Source: a virus. From it: a stretch of DNA of 12,142 nucleotides. This document shows, piece by piece, positions 2,074 through 12,142 of this stretch. Under the pieces are notes generated by a model. That model ran no database searches. It had not been told where the DNA came from and saw nothing but the letters and a program-made list of their open reading frames with translations. How positions within the stretch are numbered: the stretch's first letter is position 1; every line of letters starts with the position of its first letter. The stretch lies in the UHGV virus genome UHGV-0116081; one strand, given 5' to 3'. The position numbers were made by a program, and so were the translations under genes.

Positions 2074-2306
2074 GTTGGCTTCCCTTTATTTATATTTATC
2101 GCAGGTATTAGTTAATCAAAACACGAGCAGTGCCACAATAATTAAATGGCGTACTATTTCTTATGGTTATTAGTTTCCTAGTAACTTTACCGACCATAAA
2201 CTAAATCAACAAAGCTGACATATTAACTAAATTTAAGTACCCTTTTTCGCACACTTGACGCTTGCCGCGTCTAAACTGTTCATCCTATATCAACAGAACA
2301 AAAAAT

Positions 2307-3452
2307 ATGAAATACATAAAATCTTCATCGTTGCTGGCATTAACTTTGCTTTTTAGCTCTGGATTCGTTAACGCAGACAATAAACAAACGCTGATAGAAG
2401 CCGCTACCGCAGGGGATACCGCAGCACAAAGTGAGTTAGGGACAAATTATTTTGATGGTGTCAATGGTTTTGATAAGGATGTAGTTGAGGCCAAGAAGTG
2501 GATTGATCTCGCTGCAGAAAAGGGAGACAAAGTAGCATATTATGCACTTGGGGTTATGTACACATTTGGCGAGGGTGTAGATAAAGACTTAAATAAAGCA
2601 GTTGAGTACTACAAACTTGCGGGAGATGCTCGTGAAGGTAGAGCCTATAACAATCTTGGTGCTATTTATCAAAAGGGGATGCTTGGTAAAGTAGATCATG
2701 CGCTCGCCATTAAATACTTCAAACTAGCCTCTGATGCCGGGTATGTTAAAGCTAGCTACCTTCTTGGTGCGTATTACCAATATGGTAAAGGTGTACAAAA
2801 GAGTTATAAAAAAGCTTTTACTTATTACAAAAAAGCGGCGGATCAAGGTAGTTCAGATGGCATGTTCGCATTAGGCACCTTATACGATGACGGTTTAGGT
2901 GTTAAACGCAACGATGCCGAAGCAATTAAGTGGTATAAAAAAGCTGCTGAACTCGGAAACGCCGATGCCATGACAAATCTTGGCATTATGTATGAGTATG
3001 GTGAAGGGGTTAAAAAAGACTATAAAAAAGCAGCTGAGCTTTATCAGGCTGCTTGTGATAAAGAAGATAAAAATGGCTGTGATTACATTGCAGAACTGAA
3101 AGAAAGCGGCAAATATCGAGCGCCGGCTTCCAAAGCCAAAACAAAATCCGCCACCCAGCGACTTATTGCTAAATCCATTGATAAGGGCGTTAACGCTACA
3201 TTTACCTGGCAGGGTGATGATGCTACCTTCACCGCTAATGATGGCAAAGTTGACTGCACCTTCCTGAAGGATTTTTCAGAGAAAGGAGGCAATCTGGCTA
3301 CCTCGTTTGTTTGCACCGATAACGTTCAAATCATACTGAAGCAATTCAGAGATACCAAGAATGCCTACCTCGCGGTAATGACTGACAACTTCAACACAGA
3401 AGTTAAATCATTTTCGGTCAATGTGTACGTGACTAATACTGGTTCAAACTAA
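2307..3452 (+). CDS. secreted Sel1-like repeat (SLR/TPR-like) protein with a non-repeat C-terminal domain
   Basis: Track ORF begins at a TTG (2262); the first ATG at 2307 gives MKYIKSSSLLALTLLFSSGFVNA, a classic Sec signal peptide with a VNA cleavage site. About six tandem ~36-aa Sel1-type repeats (e.g. AEKGDKVAYYALGVMYTFGEGVDKDLNKAVEYYKLA; ADQGSSDGMFALGTLYDDGLGVKRNDAEAIKWYKKAA). The last ~110 aa are non-repetitive with 4 Cys. Sampled lines are AT-rich (about 30-50% G+C by hand count). Confidence 0.85.
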   Translation: MKYIKSSSLLALTLLFSSGFVNADNKQTLIEAATAGDTAAQSELGTNYFDGVNGFDKDVVEAKKWIDLAAEKGDKVAYYALGVMYTFGEGVDKDLNKAVEYYKLAGDAREGRAYNNLGAIYQKGMLGKVDHALAIKYFKLASDAGYVKASYLLGAYYQYGKGVQKSYKKAFTYYKKAADQGSSDGMFALGTLYDDGLGVKRNDAEAIKWYKKAAELGNADAMTNLGIMYEYGEGVKKDYKKAAELYQAACDKEDKNGCDYIAELKESGKYRAPASKAKTKSATQRLIAKSIDKGVNATFTWQGDDATFTANDGKVDCTFLKDFSEKGGNLATSFVCTDNVQIILKQFRDTKNAYLAVMTDNFNTEVKSFSVNVYVTNTGSN

Positions 3453-7124: not shown

Positions 7125-7892
7125 ATGGACGATTTATCGGTATACGCGAGATCATTGGATAAGGCTAAATACTATGTTTACTGTCTCTATGATACAGAAG
7201 ACAAGATGAAAAGACCGTTTTACATAGGAAAAGGCAAATCGACTCGTTGTCTCGATCACATCAAGTATCCCGATGACTCTCCCAAATCCATGCGGATCAA
7301 AGAACTTTTGGCTAATAAAAAATTAGGCATAGATATTCTTCGTCATGGTATGGATGAAACCACAGCCAAACTTGTTGAGGCGACATGCATCGACCTTATG
7401 GGGGTCGGAGAGCTTACGAATAAGGTACGAGGAAGTGGTTCCATGATGGGCAGAATATCACTGGACGCCTACCATCACTTAGTGCTGCAAGAGGAAACTG
7501 AAATTGCTCCTGAGCACGCCGGTCTTGCCTTCCTGCTAAACAGCACCTACAAGTCAGGAATGTCCGCTCTGGCATTATATGAAGCTACGCGTGGCGTATG
7601 GGCAAAGGTTCCAAGAGACGAGAATCTCAAATATGCCTACGCTACATATGGGGGCCTGATAATGGAAGTTTATCAGATTGAATGCTGGGTCAAAGCCGGT
7701 TCTCAGCAGTACTTTACAAGGGATATAGCTCTTGGCCCCGACACAAAACGTTATGAATTTGTTGGCAGAATAGCCGATGAGCATATTAGAAAACTGTATG
7801 TAGGCAAATTAATCAAGAAGCCACCAAGCTACGGCAGCCCTTTTGTGAAGGTTGGGGTGGTTAGGAATGAACATAGTGTTAGCGCGGCATAA
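7125..7892 (+). CDS. GIY-YIG nuclease-domain protein with an unrecognised C-terminal domain
   Basis: N-terminus YYVYCLYDTEDKMKRPFYIGKGKSTRCLDH matches the GIY...YIG...R...H arrangement of GIY-YIG nucleases (compare I-TevI and UvrC N-termini), with a downstream Glu (VEATCID) and Asn (TNKVRG) in plausible catalytic positions. C-terminal ~160 aa not recognised. Sampled lines are about 40% G+C, lower than the neighbouring replication genes. Confidence 0.7.
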   Translation: MDDLSVYARSLDKAKYYVYCLYDTEDKMKRPFYIGKGKSTRCLDHIKYPDDSPKSMRIKELLANKKLGIDILRHGMDETTAKLVEATCIDLMGVGELTNKVRGSGSMMGRISLDAYHHLVLQEETEIAPEHAGLAFLLNSTYKSGMSALALYEATRGVWAKVPRDENLKYAYATYGGLIMEVYQIECWVKAGSQQYFTRDIALGPDTKRYEFVGRIADEHIRKLYVGKLIKKPPSYGSPFVKVGVVRNEHSVSAA

Positions 7893-9288: not shown

Positions 9289-9558
9289 ATGTCCGCACTG
9301 AAAAAGCAGCGCATCGATTTGAGATTAACCGATGACGATAAAAGCATCATCGAGGAAGCTGCCGCAATGTCTAACCAGAGCATTACCCAGTTCATGGTTA
9401 GCAGTGCATCCGAACGTGCCGTGAAGGTGATAGAGCAACACCGTAGACTGGTTCTAAGTGAAGAGTCCTGGAATCTGGTTATGGATGCTATAAGCAATCC
9501 TCCGGCACCGAACGACAAGCTGAAACGAGCTGCCAATCGTCTGAAAAGCATGGAGTAA
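9289..9558 (+). CDS. DUF1778-type (TacA/AtaR-like) antitoxin, ribbon-helix-helix
   Basis: 89-aa ORF with ATG at 9289 and AGGGGG about 5 nt upstream. Sequence pattern (KKQRIDLRLTDDDKSIIEEAAAMSNQSITQFMVSSASERAVKVIEQHRR...) matches the length and layout of DUF1778 antitoxins that pair with GNAT toxins, and it sits directly upstream of a GNAT ORF. Confidence 0.8.
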   Translation: MSALKKQRIDLRLTDDDKSIIEEAAAMSNQSITQFMVSSASERAVKVIEQHRRLVLSEESWNLVMDAISNPPAPNDKLKRAANRLKSME

Positions 9559-9565
9559 TTTACTC

Positions 9566-10087
9566 GTGAGCAATACGACGATCGAGATTTTCTCTGGAGA
9601 GAACGATTATGATCTAAACGGTTTTGATTGCGGCGAAGAGTCACTAAACGCATTTTTGACCAACCACTTAAAAAGACAGCATGAAGGAAAAATTCTTCGC
9701 GCTTATGTGCTTTGCACTAAAGAAGAAATACCAAAGGTATTAGGTTATTACACTTTGTCAGGCAGCTGCTTTGAGAAAGAAACCTTACCTTCAAAGAGTC
9801 AGCAAAAGAAAGTGCCTTATCGGAATGTCCCAAGTATCACTTTAGGCAGACTGGCTTTGGACAAATCTCTTCAAGGTCAGGGGCTTGGCTCAATGCTTGT
9901 AACTCACGCAATGCGTGTTGTGTACAATGCATCTCTTGCGGTAGGCATTCATGGGCTTTTCGTTGAGGCGTTGAACGATAAAGCCAGGGCGTTTTATAAA
10001 AGTTTGGGCTTTATCCAGCTGGTTGGTAACAACGATCGTTCTTTGTTCTATCCAACAAAATCTATCGAAAAATTGTTCGAAGAATAA
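9566..10087 (+). CDS. GNAT-family acetyltransferase toxin (TacT/AtaT/ItaT-like)
   Basis: 173-aa ORF with a GTG start at 9566, 7 nt after the antitoxin stop, with GGAG inside the antitoxin 3' end. GNAT acetyl-CoA-binding region (ITLGRLALDKSLQGQGLGSMLVTHAM) and overall pattern typical of toxin-type GNATs. Confidence 0.8.
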   Translation: MSNTTIEIFSGENDYDLNGFDCGEESLNAFLTNHLKRQHEGKILRAYVLCTKEEIPKVLGYYTLSGSCFEKETLPSKSQQKKVPYRNVPSITLGRLALDKSLQGQGLGSMLVTHAMRVVYNASLAVGIHGLFVEALNDKARAFYKSLGFIQLVGNNDRSLFYPTKSIEKLFEE

Positions 10088-10093
10088 TGTGTC

Positions 10094-10109
10094 CCCCTCA
10101 TTTGAGGGG
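10094..10109. other. short GC-rich hairpin between the convergent toxin and o-spanin genes (CCCCTCA / TGAGGGG)
   Basis: 7-nt complementary arms with a minimal loop, read directly. No clean T-tract on either side, so only a weak terminator candidate. Confidence 0.25.
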
Positions 10110-10119
10110 AACTTCGACA

Positions 10120-10335
10120 TCACCAACCGCAAACTCTCTCTCCCATCGTATTGTGAAAAAGGATTTGGCGTTCGGTTTCTTCGGTCATTACATCGTCATT
10201 GCTGATATAAATAGGTTCAGCGCCATCGCAGAACAACACGCTGGTGGTCTGTGGCTTAATTACGCACCCACTTATCATGCAGCTCACGATGAATGGCAGA
10301 AGCATCTTTCTGACGTATTTCACTGTTCGTCTCAT
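10120..10335 (-). CDS. o-spanin-like outer-membrane lipoprotein (Rz1-like), overlapped with the i-spanin gene
   Basis: 71-aa ORF with ATG at 10335..10333. N-terminus MRRTVKYVRKMLLPFIVSCMISGC has a basic n-region, hydrophobic core and lipobox I-S-G-C; short mature part ends in a Cys (RVCGW). Its 5' end overlaps the 3' end of the i-spanin ORF (10256..10335) in another frame, the classic overlapped spanin layout. Confidence 0.5.
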   Translation of the reverse strand: MRRTVKYVRKMLLPFIVSCMISGCVIKPQTTSVLFCDGAEPIYISNDDVMTEETERQILFHNTMGERVCGW

Positions 10336-10507
10336 TCACCACTTCCACTGTGCTTTGAAGACGCTTGTTATCTTCCCGCCGTTCTTTCTCTTCCATACTG
10401 CGTCTGGCCATATACCCGCCATAGGAGTATGCGCCGACAAGGACTAGAATGACGGCGGCCAGAGTGAACAAAGCGGATTTCATTTTGAACAACAGGCCGT
10501 CGAACAT
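10256..10507 (-). CDS. i-spanin-like protein (Rz-like; N-terminal transmembrane anchor plus charged periplasmic helix)
   Basis: 83-aa ORF with ATG at 10507..10505, 2 nt after the endolysin-like stop. N-terminal TMD (ALFTLAAVILVLVGAYSYGGY) followed by a Glu/Arg/Lys-rich predicted coiled coil. Shorter than typical Rz. Confidence 0.5.
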   Translation of the reverse strand: MFDGLLFKMKSALFTLAAVILVLVGAYSYGGYMARRSMEEKERREDNKRLQSTVEVVNETNSEIRQKDASAIHRELHDKWVRN

Positions 10508-10509
10508 AC

Positions 10510-11202
10510 TTACACTAATCCTTTCTGGTGCTTGCGAACCTGGGACCAGGCAATGAATGCTGCCACAAGAATGGTAGCTACGCCAAAGATGATGCGTACC
10601 GTATCTCCACTGGAGATATTGCCTTGCGCTTTATCCATTGCGGCAGAAACTTGAGGCATAACGTCAGCAATTTGTGCAAGGCCAATACCTGCAGTGACTG
10701 TAGCACCTGTGGTTTCTTTTGTTACAGGAACGGCTTTTACAGCCTTTACCGGTTTGACAATGCCGGCACGTCGCAGACCTTCTTCGATAAGTTCTGGTGT
10801 ATACCAGCTATTGGGAGTTTTCAGCGGACCTCGGCCATTTTCATGTCTAATGATCGCCTCTACCAGCGGTCTTAAGGTCTCGTAGTCATGCAGATCGATA
10901 ATCATATCTGGTGCTACTCCAACGGCTTTGGATACCTCGTTCACATAAGCCAAAGTGTTGTTCTCATGTGGAGGCGCCCAGCGTTCGATGACTTCGCGGA
11001 TCGTATCAATGCTGGAGCCATCTTTTGCGCGGCGCTTGTCGTGGTAAGTAATGAGTGTCACTGCCAATGCCCGAATCCCCCACACGGGGTCTTTAAACGT
11101 GCAGAAGCGCGGTTCTGAAGAGTTGTTGACTAAGCCCTGCCACGGCGCTCCTTTATCAAGATTACCGGGGTTGTTATTACGAATGCCTCTCGGAGTTTTC
11201 AT
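10510..11202 (-). CDS. endolysin-like protein (peptidoglycan hydrolase candidate) with a C-terminal transmembrane segment
   Basis: Start placed at ATG 11202..11200 (MKTPRGIRNNNPGNL...) because AGGAGA lies 8 nt upstream; the track's start at 11229 lacks this. Sits between a holin-like gene and the spanin pair. Contains the motif GIRNNNPGN, which I associate only vaguely with phage lysis proteins; the catalytic family is not identified. C-terminal hydrophobic stretch IIFGVATILVAAFIAW. Confidence 0.45.
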   Translation of the reverse strand: MKTPRGIRNNNPGNLDKGAPWQGLVNNSSEPRFCTFKDPVWGIRALAVTLITYHDKRRAKDGSSIDTIREVIERWAPPHENNTLAYVNEVSKAVGVAPDMIIDLHDYETLRPLVEAIIRHENGRGPLKTPNSWYTPELIEEGLRRAGIVKPVKAVKAVPVTKETTGATVTAGIGLAQIADVMPQVSAAMDKAQGNISSGDTVRIIFGVATILVAAFIAWSQVRKHQKGLV

Positions 11203-11215
11203 CCTTGATCTCCTG

Positions 11216-11551
11216 TTATTGCAATCCATTTTTTACGCCATACGCGGCCAATCCTAAAAGCAGTACGGTAATAATGAACGACGTTATTTTCGAAACAATG
11301 CCGCCAAAGAACCCACTGGAGATGGTGTCGAGCCGGTTAAGAAGTTTGTCCAGATTGGAGTGCTGAATGCTGTGTTGTGCGGGCGTCATATCGCCAAAGT
11401 AGGTTTTGAGCTGGTCATTGACCTCCTGACCAATTTCCTCGCGTATTTCTTTACCTAATTTGCCTACGACTTCCCGAGCAACGATTGAGGCGATGCGCTC
11501 AACCTGTTCAGTTGTGACTCCCGCCATCTCGTTCGACATGTTTTCCTCCAT
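11216..11551 (-). CDS. holin-like small membrane protein (single C-terminal TMD)
   Basis: 111-aa ORF with ATG at 11551..11549, directly upstream of the endolysin-like gene. Hydrophilic N-terminal ~85 aa, then one strongly hydrophobic segment (FGGIVSKITSFIITVLLLGLAAYGV). Assignment is by context and topology, not homology. Confidence 0.4.
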   Translation of the reverse strand: MEENMSNEMAGVTTEQVERIASIVAREVVGKLGKEIREEIGQEVNDQLKTYFGDMTPAQHSIQHSNLDKLLNRLDTISSGFFGGIVSKITSFIITVLLLGLAAYGVKNGLQ

Positions 11552-11599
11552 GAAAAGTCAAATCGGGATGGCGTGTTTATATCATATTTTAACCATTTG

Positions 11600-11623
11600 T
11601 AGTAGGTATGTACTTACCTACTA
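11600..11623. promoter_or_regulatory. 24-bp near-perfect palindrome TAGTAGGTATGTACTTACCTACTA upstream of the lysis cassette
   Basis: 11 of 12 base pairs symmetric about the centre (one T/T mismatch). Lies in the 121-bp AT-rich gap between the tfa stop and the holin-like start, about 50 bp upstream of the latter. Confidence 0.4.
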
Positions 11624-11654
11624 TATATCTTGCAAACTAATCGTTGTTAATAAT

Positions 11655-11669
11655 GCAGATATAATCTGC
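11655..11669 (-). other. short hairpin GCAGAT-ATA-ATCTGC just downstream of the tfa stop
   Basis: 6-bp perfect arms with a 3-nt spacer, starting 4 nt after the tfa stop codon. No U-tract follows, so it is a weak terminator candidate or a protein-binding site. Confidence 0.25.
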
Positions 11670-11672
11670 CCC

Positions 11673-12142
11673 TTACTCTGCTGGTATTGTTGGCCAGTCA
11701 ATATCCGGTGCCGTTGATGTGTCAATGCGGTTCAATAAAACTCTATACTTCTTCCATGCAGTCAGCAACGATGCTTCTTCCTCCGTTGCAATCTCCAAAT
11801 CTACAGCATCCTGAAGTGGCGCAATGTGCTCGCTGGCTACCTGCATCAGACTTTTTTTTGTTTCTTCCGCTTCCCGTACCTGAAACAATTTTTCTGTTTC
11901 CTCATCCTTCTCCCAGGATGTGCCGTCCCACTTCTGATATTCCCCATCCGGTGATAACCAGGTGACATTTTCCGGTAATGGCCCAAGTTCAGAAATAAAC
12001 AACGCGTCCCCTGATTCCACGTCATAGACCGTTTTACCCCTGTGGTCTTCAACGAGACTCCATGATTTATTTTCGCTGTTGAATACGGCCACGAAGCCTG
12101 CCGGAATATCTGGCGGTGCAATATCGGTACTGTTTGCTGGCA
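11673..12142 (-). CDS. tfa: tail fiber assembly protein (Tfa family), N-terminus beyond window end
   Basis: C-terminal sequence ...[61 protein letters not shown] closely matches what I recall of enterobacterial prophage Tfa proteins. The track's GTG start at 12092 is probably internal: the frame stays open upstream to the window edge (...[25 protein letters not shown]...), which also matches the Tfa N-terminal region. Confidence 0.85.

Follow-up and report, generated by a model that had tools for sequence, protein, structure and literature searches.

Phage endolysins that carry a transmembrane domain (TMD) at their C-terminus have been described from Siskin (PMC6498227), BSPM4 (M4Lys, PMC7143992) and Enc34 (PMC8943055). 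In the Enc34 endolysin the PHA02564 domain is muralytic and all-helical, with Glu131, Trp79 and Tyr95 as signature residues; the enzymatically active domain was muralytic in experiments and the full-length protein toxic (Cernooka et al., PMC8943055). For M4Lys, liquid chromatography-mass spectrometry (LC-MS) points to N-acetylglucosaminidase activity. M4Lys alone lyses Escherichia coli, and does so even in the presence of the Sec inhibitor azide; deletion of the TMD abolishes lysis, the TMD by itself is bacteriostatic and in vitro the Chi-type holin can be dispensed with (PMC7143992), with the authors' caveat that holin-independent lysis was observed solely on overexpression. The papers on M4Lys and Enc34 set the class in Chi-like phages and their relatives and do not mention SSU5-type elements (PMC7143992, PMC8943055).

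Here we analyse a 12,142-nucleotide stretch of UHGV virus genome UHGV-0116081 (the window, meaning this whole stretch). Four closely packed genes lie on its minus strand at 11539-10120, in the order holin-like gene, endolysin, inner-membrane spanin (i-spanin) and overlapped outer-membrane spanin (o-spanin). They very probably represent the late-expressed lysis operon of a phage-plasmid of SSU5/pHCM2 type, in which a holin-position protein, a tethered glycosidase and a spanin pair would act in the way proposed below. A first-pass annotation, made from the letters alone, had already read a Gram-negative phage lysis cassette in this order, and this is borne out: the four open reading frames (ORFs) are present and have annotated homologues in phages SSU5 and Cyrano.

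The lysis cassette and its C-terminally anchored endolysin

The lysis-gene part of the window shares 84% identity with Escherichia phage Cyrano and 80% with Salmonella phage SSU5, whose records label the four genes holin, endolysin, Rz and Rz1 (the first as 'Holin' or 'putative holin'), and the same cassette is present at ~99% identity in 16 or more complete E. coli genomes. Because the cassette is kept in all of these, and is annotated in the two phages as lysis genes, its arrangement is not a product of chance. The last 2.1 kb of the window are 99.7% identical to E. coli plasmid pEC21Z137-115K; from its identity to this plasmid, to Cyrano and to SSU5, the element that carries the window is assigned to the SSU5/pHCM2-type phage-plasmids of E. 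coli. Such a host element measures ~100-115 kb, against ~60 kb for a Chivirus.

The holin-position gene (11539-11216, minus strand) encodes 107 amino acids (aa). Its ORF reaches 11551, which would give 111 aa, and a GGAGG sequence 7 nt upstream favours the start at 11539. After a gap of 13 nt comes the endolysin gene (11202-10510, minus strand; 230 aa), whose ORF likewise reaches further, to 11229 (239 aa), with an AGGAG Shine-Dalgarno site in favour of the start at 11202. Another 2 nt separate it from the i-spanin gene (10507-10256, minus strand; 83 aa), inside which the o-spanin gene begins (10335-10120, minus strand; 71-aa precursor). None of the four proteins had a Pfam or NCBIfam match above threshold; there were only spurious weak matches (SLATT, TraQ) to hydrophobic helices.

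The 230-aa protein is made up of a glycosidase domain (residues 1-150), a Lys-rich linker, a helix at ~164-184, an acidic loop, a TMD at ~201-221 and the basic tail RKHQKGLV. The GIRNNNPGN motif noticed in the first-pass annotation is indeed present, at residues 6-14. The same annotation could not place the catalytic domain, which a sequence search of the PDB (phmmer) does: the best match is the endolysin's catalytic domain from Hafnia phage Enc34 (7Q47, E 5.9e-56, residues 3-151), the next is phage E1004's core protein Gp29, by its N-terminus (9vvp, E 1e-20), and the 230-aa protein also matches phrog_873 'endolysin' (E 3e-86). AlphaFold2, given 16 homologues, produced a model with a predicted local distance difference test score (pLDDT) of 80-93 across most core helices, the helices being 39-56, 68-75, 83-94, 107-122 and 136-145. 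When this model was compared with the PDB by Foldseek, 7Q47 was the sole significant match (E 4.5e-16, 59% identity, TM-score 0.81). The fold predicted in this way is all-helical and resembles the alpha-lobe of lysozyme, as in the Enc34 class. Residues E121, W75 and Y86 align with Glu131, Trp79 and Tyr95 of Enc34, and are invariant in alignments of 12 and of 16 sequences.

The 230-aa protein belongs unambiguously to the Enc34/M4Lys (PHA02564) endolysin class, so that the family matched is one with a demonstrated muralytic enzyme and not a non-lytic one. It is most likely a peptidoglycan glycosidase, namely a beta-N-acetylglucosaminidase whose catalytic Glu121 would be positioned by Trp75 and Tyr86; by analogy with the experiments on Enc34 and M4Lys, it should be enzymatically active and lyse cells in a manner dependent on its TMD. 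What had been taken for unusual features thus belongs to a class published in 2019-2022 (PMC6498227, PMC7143992, PMC8943055), and the SSU5 and Cyrano records already annotate the endolysin.

The membrane anchor was said to be C-terminal, in place of an N-terminal signal-anchor, and to be a hydrophobic helix. The first part stands. Hydropathy analysis places a strong hydrophobic helix at ~201-221, followed directly by the tail RKHQKGLV, and finds no hydrophobic segment in residues 1-160, hence no N-terminal signal-anchor-release (SAR) domain. A reading of the protein as a SAR endolysin is ruled out by the absence of this N-terminal segment. The second part holds only for the strong helix: because a weakly hydrophobic, Gly/Ala/Thr-rich helix precedes it at ~164-184, the anchor is a two-helix domain. 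Chi-like endolysins align with the protein over its full length, both C-terminal helices included, at 54-58% identity, and that of Chi-like phage FSL SP-088 does so through the last residues (58%). Across the 16 homologues the linker is basic (+1 to +4), helix 1 has a mean Kyte-Doolittle hydropathy of 0.66-1.17 with 52-71% Gly/Ala/Ser/Thr, a SAR-like composition, the loop is acidic (-1 to -2), helix 2 is strongly hydrophobic (mean 1.25-2.4) and the C-terminal tail carries 0 to +3 charges. Under the positive-inside rule, this charge pattern favours an N-in/C-in hairpin, in which linker and tail would lie inside and the acidic loop outside, the topology also predicted for the Siskin endolysin (PMC6498227).

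The protein therefore compares closely with what is known. With the Enc34 ORF39, BSPM4 M4Lys and Siskin-type endolysins it shares the catalytic domain (59% identity to the Enc34 crystal) and the Trp/Tyr/Glu signature. With the Chi-like endolysins of the FSL SP-088 class (54-58% full-length identity) it also shares the linker, the weak helix 1, the strong helix 2 and the basic tail, and Chi-like cassettes likewise place the endolysin after a holin-position gene and before short overlapped spanins, of which the o-spanin is homologous. The SAR endolysins (P1 Lyz, phage 21 R21) are similar in being tethered to the membrane before lysis and in having one weak Gly/Ala/Ser/Thr-rich helix, and homologues of the window endolysin are, like them, partly holin-independent on overexpression. 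They differ in that the anchor here is C-terminal, the N-terminus is not signal-like and the catalytic fold is another one; M4Lys, moreover, is insensitive to azide.

TMD-bearing PHA02564 endolysins are also found in prophages of Pasteurella and of an Alcaligenaceae bacterium. On a Pasteurella-like contig (L096, 2231-3432) such an endolysin (57% identity) has a 75-aa i-spanin-like protein after it and an 85-aa protein without a clear TMD before it, which suggests that the class also occurs without a recognisable adjoining holin gene.

A short overlapped spanin pair

The i-spanin has an N-terminal TMD at ~5-28 and a charged helical periplasmic domain of ~50 aa, contains no Cys and matches phrog_1026 'Rz-like spanin' (E 4.2e-22). 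Its length of only 83 aa had been remarked on, but is not exceptional: the profile of phrog_1026 has 85 positions, and the i-spanin of FSL SP-088, in the same position and with the same layout, has 84 aa. The short i-spanin is a trait of this cassette lineage and no anomaly, because the Chi-like protein has the same size and layout; a published spanin census, in which the SSU5 i-spanin is a singleton family and the SSU5 o-spanin falls in the Chi family, agrees with this (PMC6139136). BLASTP detected no similarity between the i-spanin of the window and the Chi-like one. Homology of the two is accordingly unsupported, which fits the singleton status given in the census (PMC6139136).

The o-spanin was read as an overlapped lipoprotein, correctly so. 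Its gene begins inside the i-spanin gene in another frame, with an overlap of 80 nt and 136 nt beyond it, which is the arrangement of the 'overlapped' class. The precursor has a basic n-region and a lipobox I-S-G-C24 with Val, not Asp, at +2, and the mature protein of ~48 aa contains two Cys besides the lipidated one. It matches phrog_1275 'Rz-like spanin' (E 2.9e-25) and is 40% identical to the Chi-like o-spanin (E 7e-19), the lipobox Cys residues being aligned (ISG|C24 and VSG|C).

The 83-aa and ~48-aa proteins have the architecture of a two-component overlapped spanin pair, for which disruption of the outer membrane is the predicted function. They resemble lambda Rz/Rz1 and P2 LysB/LysC in that one subunit, with an N-terminal TMD, belongs to the inner membrane and its partner, encoded in an alternative frame, is an outer-membrane lipoprotein; the overlapped gene architecture is that of P2. 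The lambda subunits, in contrast, have 153 and 40 aa, against 83 and ~48 aa (mature) in what is here a much shorter pair. The i-spanin of the window also has no Cys, and therefore the intermolecular i-spanin disulfides of lambda are impossible here, while the o-spanin is not proline-rich and has the two further Cys.

The tail-anchored protein in the holin position

The endolysin class and short overlapped spanins are known from the literature and the annotation of the SSU5 genes from GenBank, so that only the holin-position protein is uncharacterised. Its 107 aa comprise an acidic helical N-terminal domain of ~80 aa with the motif FGDMTPxQHxxQH, a single C-terminal TMD at ~81-102, which upholds the earlier description of it as tail-anchored, and a 5-aa tail (KNGLQ). 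It matches phrog_5093 (E 6.7e-68), a family annotated 'unknown function'. A Chi-type holin has an N-terminal TMD and a C-terminal coiled-coil, whereas here an N-terminal soluble domain is combined with a C-terminal TMD, and no similarity was found between the two proteins.

A word-indexed search with the 107-aa protein retrieved just 28 clusters, and all clusters with a source name were Enterobacteriaceae. An exhaustive profile search of 1.84 billion representatives extended the family to 52 proteins at E up to 1e-3, with the same architecture: 94-141 aa, a charged helical N-terminal domain, a C-terminal TMD and a short tail. The conserved block is (Y/H)FGDMTPxQHxxQHxRxDxxL, followed by (N)FWG, and G49, H56 and H60 (a Gly plus H-x3-H) are invariant in 24 family sequences. 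A possible dual start is not a family trait, the Met1/Met5 pair being unconserved beyond close relatives.

Ten family representatives from outside the SSU5 clade were examined for their genomic context. In seven of them the family gene stands directly upstream of an endolysin gene, often abutting or overlapping it, and these endolysins belong to three unrelated families: Peptidase_M15_3 in five cases, GH108+PG_binding_3 in one, and a 231-aa PHA02564+TMD endolysin, on a distant SSU5-like backbone, in one. The gene downstream of the remaining three encodes a Pfam Holin_2-3 protein in one (L095; 35.6 bits against a cut-off of 27 bits) and an unassigned hydrophobic 121-aa protein at the contig end in another, and on the last, a 2.3-kb contig, no lysis gene is visible. 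The M15_3 endolysin genes are always followed by genes for uncharacterised proteins of 72-96 aa (L006, 4291-4566; L009, 4405-4623; L094, 1422-1712; L108, 3847-4068), with two TMDs in the three examined (L006, L009, L094). In P2 the order is Y (holin), K (endolysin) and lysA (regulator), the regulator gene coming after the endolysin. The gene order of the M15_3 cassettes recalls this P2 Y-K-lysA order.

Further searches added little. A search for loci with a narrower family alignment returned only SSU5-like loci at >=92% identity, and single-protein scans for further family contexts gave nothing new. A degenerate DNA pattern, G-x6-H-x3-H-x15-NFWG, hit 9 loci, none of them a family member by hmmsearch, and these are chance matches. 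In the Alcaligenaceae prophage mentioned above (L097, 2205-2504; genome GCA_013416345.1) a gene for a tail-anchored 99-aa protein stands directly upstream of the PHA02564+TMD endolysin gene and overlaps it. Its score against the family, 2.9 bits, is that of the negative controls, though its H-x3-H is in register; it was not counted as a member, and is either a very distant one or a convergent protein.

The protein of the window is small, has at least one TMD and is encoded next to the endolysin, all of which are generic holin features. Since the first position in the cassette and a partnership with interchangeable endolysin types typify holins, a holin-like role is suggested for it, on position and architecture. 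With holin classes I-III and the proposed class IV (Siskin/Chi) it has in common its small size, its membrane-bound nature, its place as the first gene and its close translational coupling to the endolysin, and the family pairs with several endolysin types. It differs from classes I-IV in that its single TMD is at the extreme C-terminus with a tail of 5-10 aa, its charged domain is N-terminal, a G-D...H-x3-H motif is conserved, and neither a Pfam or PHROG holin family nor a conserved dual start is found. As a tentative proposal, which we would rate below an even chance, this family may be an undescribed topological class of holin or lysis-control protein: tail-anchored, with a conserved cytoplasmic helical domain bearing the invariant Gly and H-x3-H, serving at least three unrelated endolysin types, and in SSU5-type elements acting as the trigger that would give a tethered endolysin access to the wall.

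Lysis could then proceed as follows. The operon would be expressed late. The 107-aa protein would insert in the inner membrane by its C-terminal TMD, its ~80-aa helical domain most likely remaining in the cytoplasm, and would accumulate and act as a holin or lysis timer. The endolysin would also accumulate, tethered by its C-terminal hairpin and, judging from the charge pattern, with the enzyme domain probably in the cytoplasm; as the M4Lys and Enc34 experiments suggest, its membrane domain may be membrane-damaging in itself. Permeabilisation or depolarisation of the membrane by the 107-aa protein, which the membrane domain of the endolysin itself would aid or replace at high dose, would let the glycosidase reach the peptidoglycan. 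After loss of the wall the spanin pair, that is the inner-membrane 83-aa subunit and the outer-membrane ~48-aa lipoprotein, would disrupt the outer membrane.

Several points speak against this scheme and the holin role in it. The topology of the endolysin class is disputed, M4Lys having been predicted as N-out/C-in (PMC7143992), and the Enc34 and M4Lys papers themselves do not settle by which route the enzyme domain crosses the membrane (PMC8943055, PMC7143992). The AlphaFold2 model of the endolysin is unreliable at residues 156-199 (pLDDT <50), and the model of the 107-aa protein, with three helices, is unusable (pLDDT 49, predicted template-modelling score 0.24). A consensus scan of the 120-nt spacer upstream of the cassette found no sigma-70-like site, and the literature searches yielded no experimental studies of tail-anchored holins or of the lysis genes of SSU5. 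The 107-aa protein matches no known holin family in Pfam, NCBIfam or PHROG, and the 24 family members scanned all fall in phrog_5093 'unknown function'. The charged C-terminal domain usual in holins is absent from it, the charged domain being N-terminal. Finally, because several distant cassettes encode a second holin-like membrane protein (the Holin_2-3 protein of L095 and the 72-96-aa two-TMD proteins of the M15_3 cassettes), the family could be an antiholin or regulator instead of a holin.

The main rival explanation builds on this last point. In it the 107-aa protein is not a holin: it would be an antiholin, regulate the timing of lysis, or serve the endolysin as chaperone or tether, and permeabilisation would be left to the C-terminal membrane domain of the endolysin. 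The behaviour of M4Lys, which lyses E. coli alone, whose TMD alone is bacteriostatic and beside which the Chi-type holin is dispensable in vitro (PMC7143992), agrees with such a division of labour, though its holin independence appeared only on overexpression. The co-occurrence of distant phrog_5093 members with the Holin_2-3 protein (at 35.6 against 27 bits) or with the two-TMD proteins of 72-96 aa points the same way, as do the lack of canonical holin features and a conserved soluble domain whose H-x3-H suggests a role in binding or sensing. On the other side, the first position in the cassette is that of the holin in lambda, P2 and Chi-like phages, and in the P2 order the regulator is the gene after the endolysin. 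Among the partners of the family, moreover, are soluble endolysins (M15_3, GH108), which lack a membrane domain. Overall we regard a non-holin role as unlikely, if a serious contender, and prefer a holin or lysis-timer function for the 107-aa protein.

Genomic setting and wider occurrence

The neighbours of the cassette fit a phage-plasmid. The window encodes a primase, a DnaB-like helicase, a GIY-YIG nuclease, a ParA-like ATPase and a DUF1778/GNAT toxin-antitoxin pair, and tail-fibre assembly and tail genes lie beyond the lysis cassette. The nuclease, a 255-aa protein with a LEM-3-like GIY-YIG domain (7125-7892, plus strand), has the replication genes on one side of it and the ParA-like partition gene on the other. 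A 396-aa Sel1-repeat protein is encoded at 2262-3452 (plus strand; Pfam Sel1, E 1.6e-52). Upstream of its primase gene pEC21Z137-115K carries genes for a fimbrial usher and a fimbrial protein and a Phd/Doc pair in place of the Sel1-repeat gene, and because the plasmid has different genes there, this is a variable cargo region of the phage-plasmid.

On the side of the o-spanin, the toxin-antitoxin pair (9289-10087, plus strand) consists of a DUF1778 antitoxin (89 aa) and a GNAT acetyltransferase toxin (173 aa) of TacA/TacT or KacA/KacT type and is convergent with the lysis operon. Only 32 nt separate the end of the toxin gene from the o-spanin stop codon, and the Cyrano homologue is labelled KacT toxin. 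A terminator-like GC-rich hairpin at 10091-10112 (minus strand), 8 nt past the o-spanin stop and with a 9-bp stem including 6 G-C pairs, separates the two convergent units; it is a mere pattern match with weak support, one site being found where 2.3 are expected from shuffles.

On the side of the holin-position gene, a tail-fibre assembly gene (tfa; 11673-12142, minus strand) extends past the end of the window and has ~85% DNA identity to lambda tfa and its relatives. Similarity to SSU5 and Cyrano breaks off just upstream of the holin-position gene (query position ~1629), and because of this the tail-fibre module is mosaic relative to SSU5, with the junction placed within the 11552-11672 spacer. 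This spacer contains an AT-rich 9-bp inverted repeat, TAGTAGGTA-agtaca-TACCTACTA (11600-11623, minus strand), with no T-run after it and no sigma-70-like promoter nearby, which could be a regulatory or a recombination-junction feature.

Given that the closest relatives were deposited as plasmids, and that RefSeq plasmid records name the four genes just 'hypothetical' or 'membrane protein', the cassette might be a decaying remnant, without current lysis function, in a plasmid that no longer makes phage; the lack of a promoter-like site upstream would also fit. This is quite improbable, since the four frames are intact, tightly coupled and provided with good ribosome-binding sites, the proteins are conserved in many genera, free of frameshifts, at identities that range from 99% to ~55-65%, SSU5 and Cyrano, with the same cassette, are plaque-forming phages according to their records, and tail, tail-fibre and replication genes flank the cassette. 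That the 230-aa protein should be a wall hydrolase of the virion, acting at the ejection stage, rather than the endolysin is hardly credible, for although its domain also matches K1F-type gp16 'internal virion protein with endolysin domain', epsilon15, tape-measure and head-protein PHROGs and E1004 Gp29 (9vvp, E 1e-20), and CDD calls PHA02564 a 'virion protein' (PMC7143992), it is a small stand-alone protein with a C-terminal membrane anchor, its gene is flanked by a holin-like gene and a spanin pair, its full-length Chi-like homologues are experimentally supported endolysins, and no other endolysin candidate exists in the window or is annotated near the locus in SSU5 or Cyrano.

Conceptually the endolysin adds nothing, yet it extends the Enc34/M4Lys class from Chi-like phages to phage-plasmids and to prophages in Pasteurella and in one member of the Alcaligenaceae. 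The useful lead is the tail-anchored phrog_5093 family, with its link to three endolysin types, and the cassette would provide a compact test system both for this family and for the way in which C-terminally anchored endolysins are exported. Phage-plasmids of the SSU5/pHCM2 type occur widely in Enterobacteriaceae, some of them with resistance genes, and their lysis genes inform how these elements are induced and spread.

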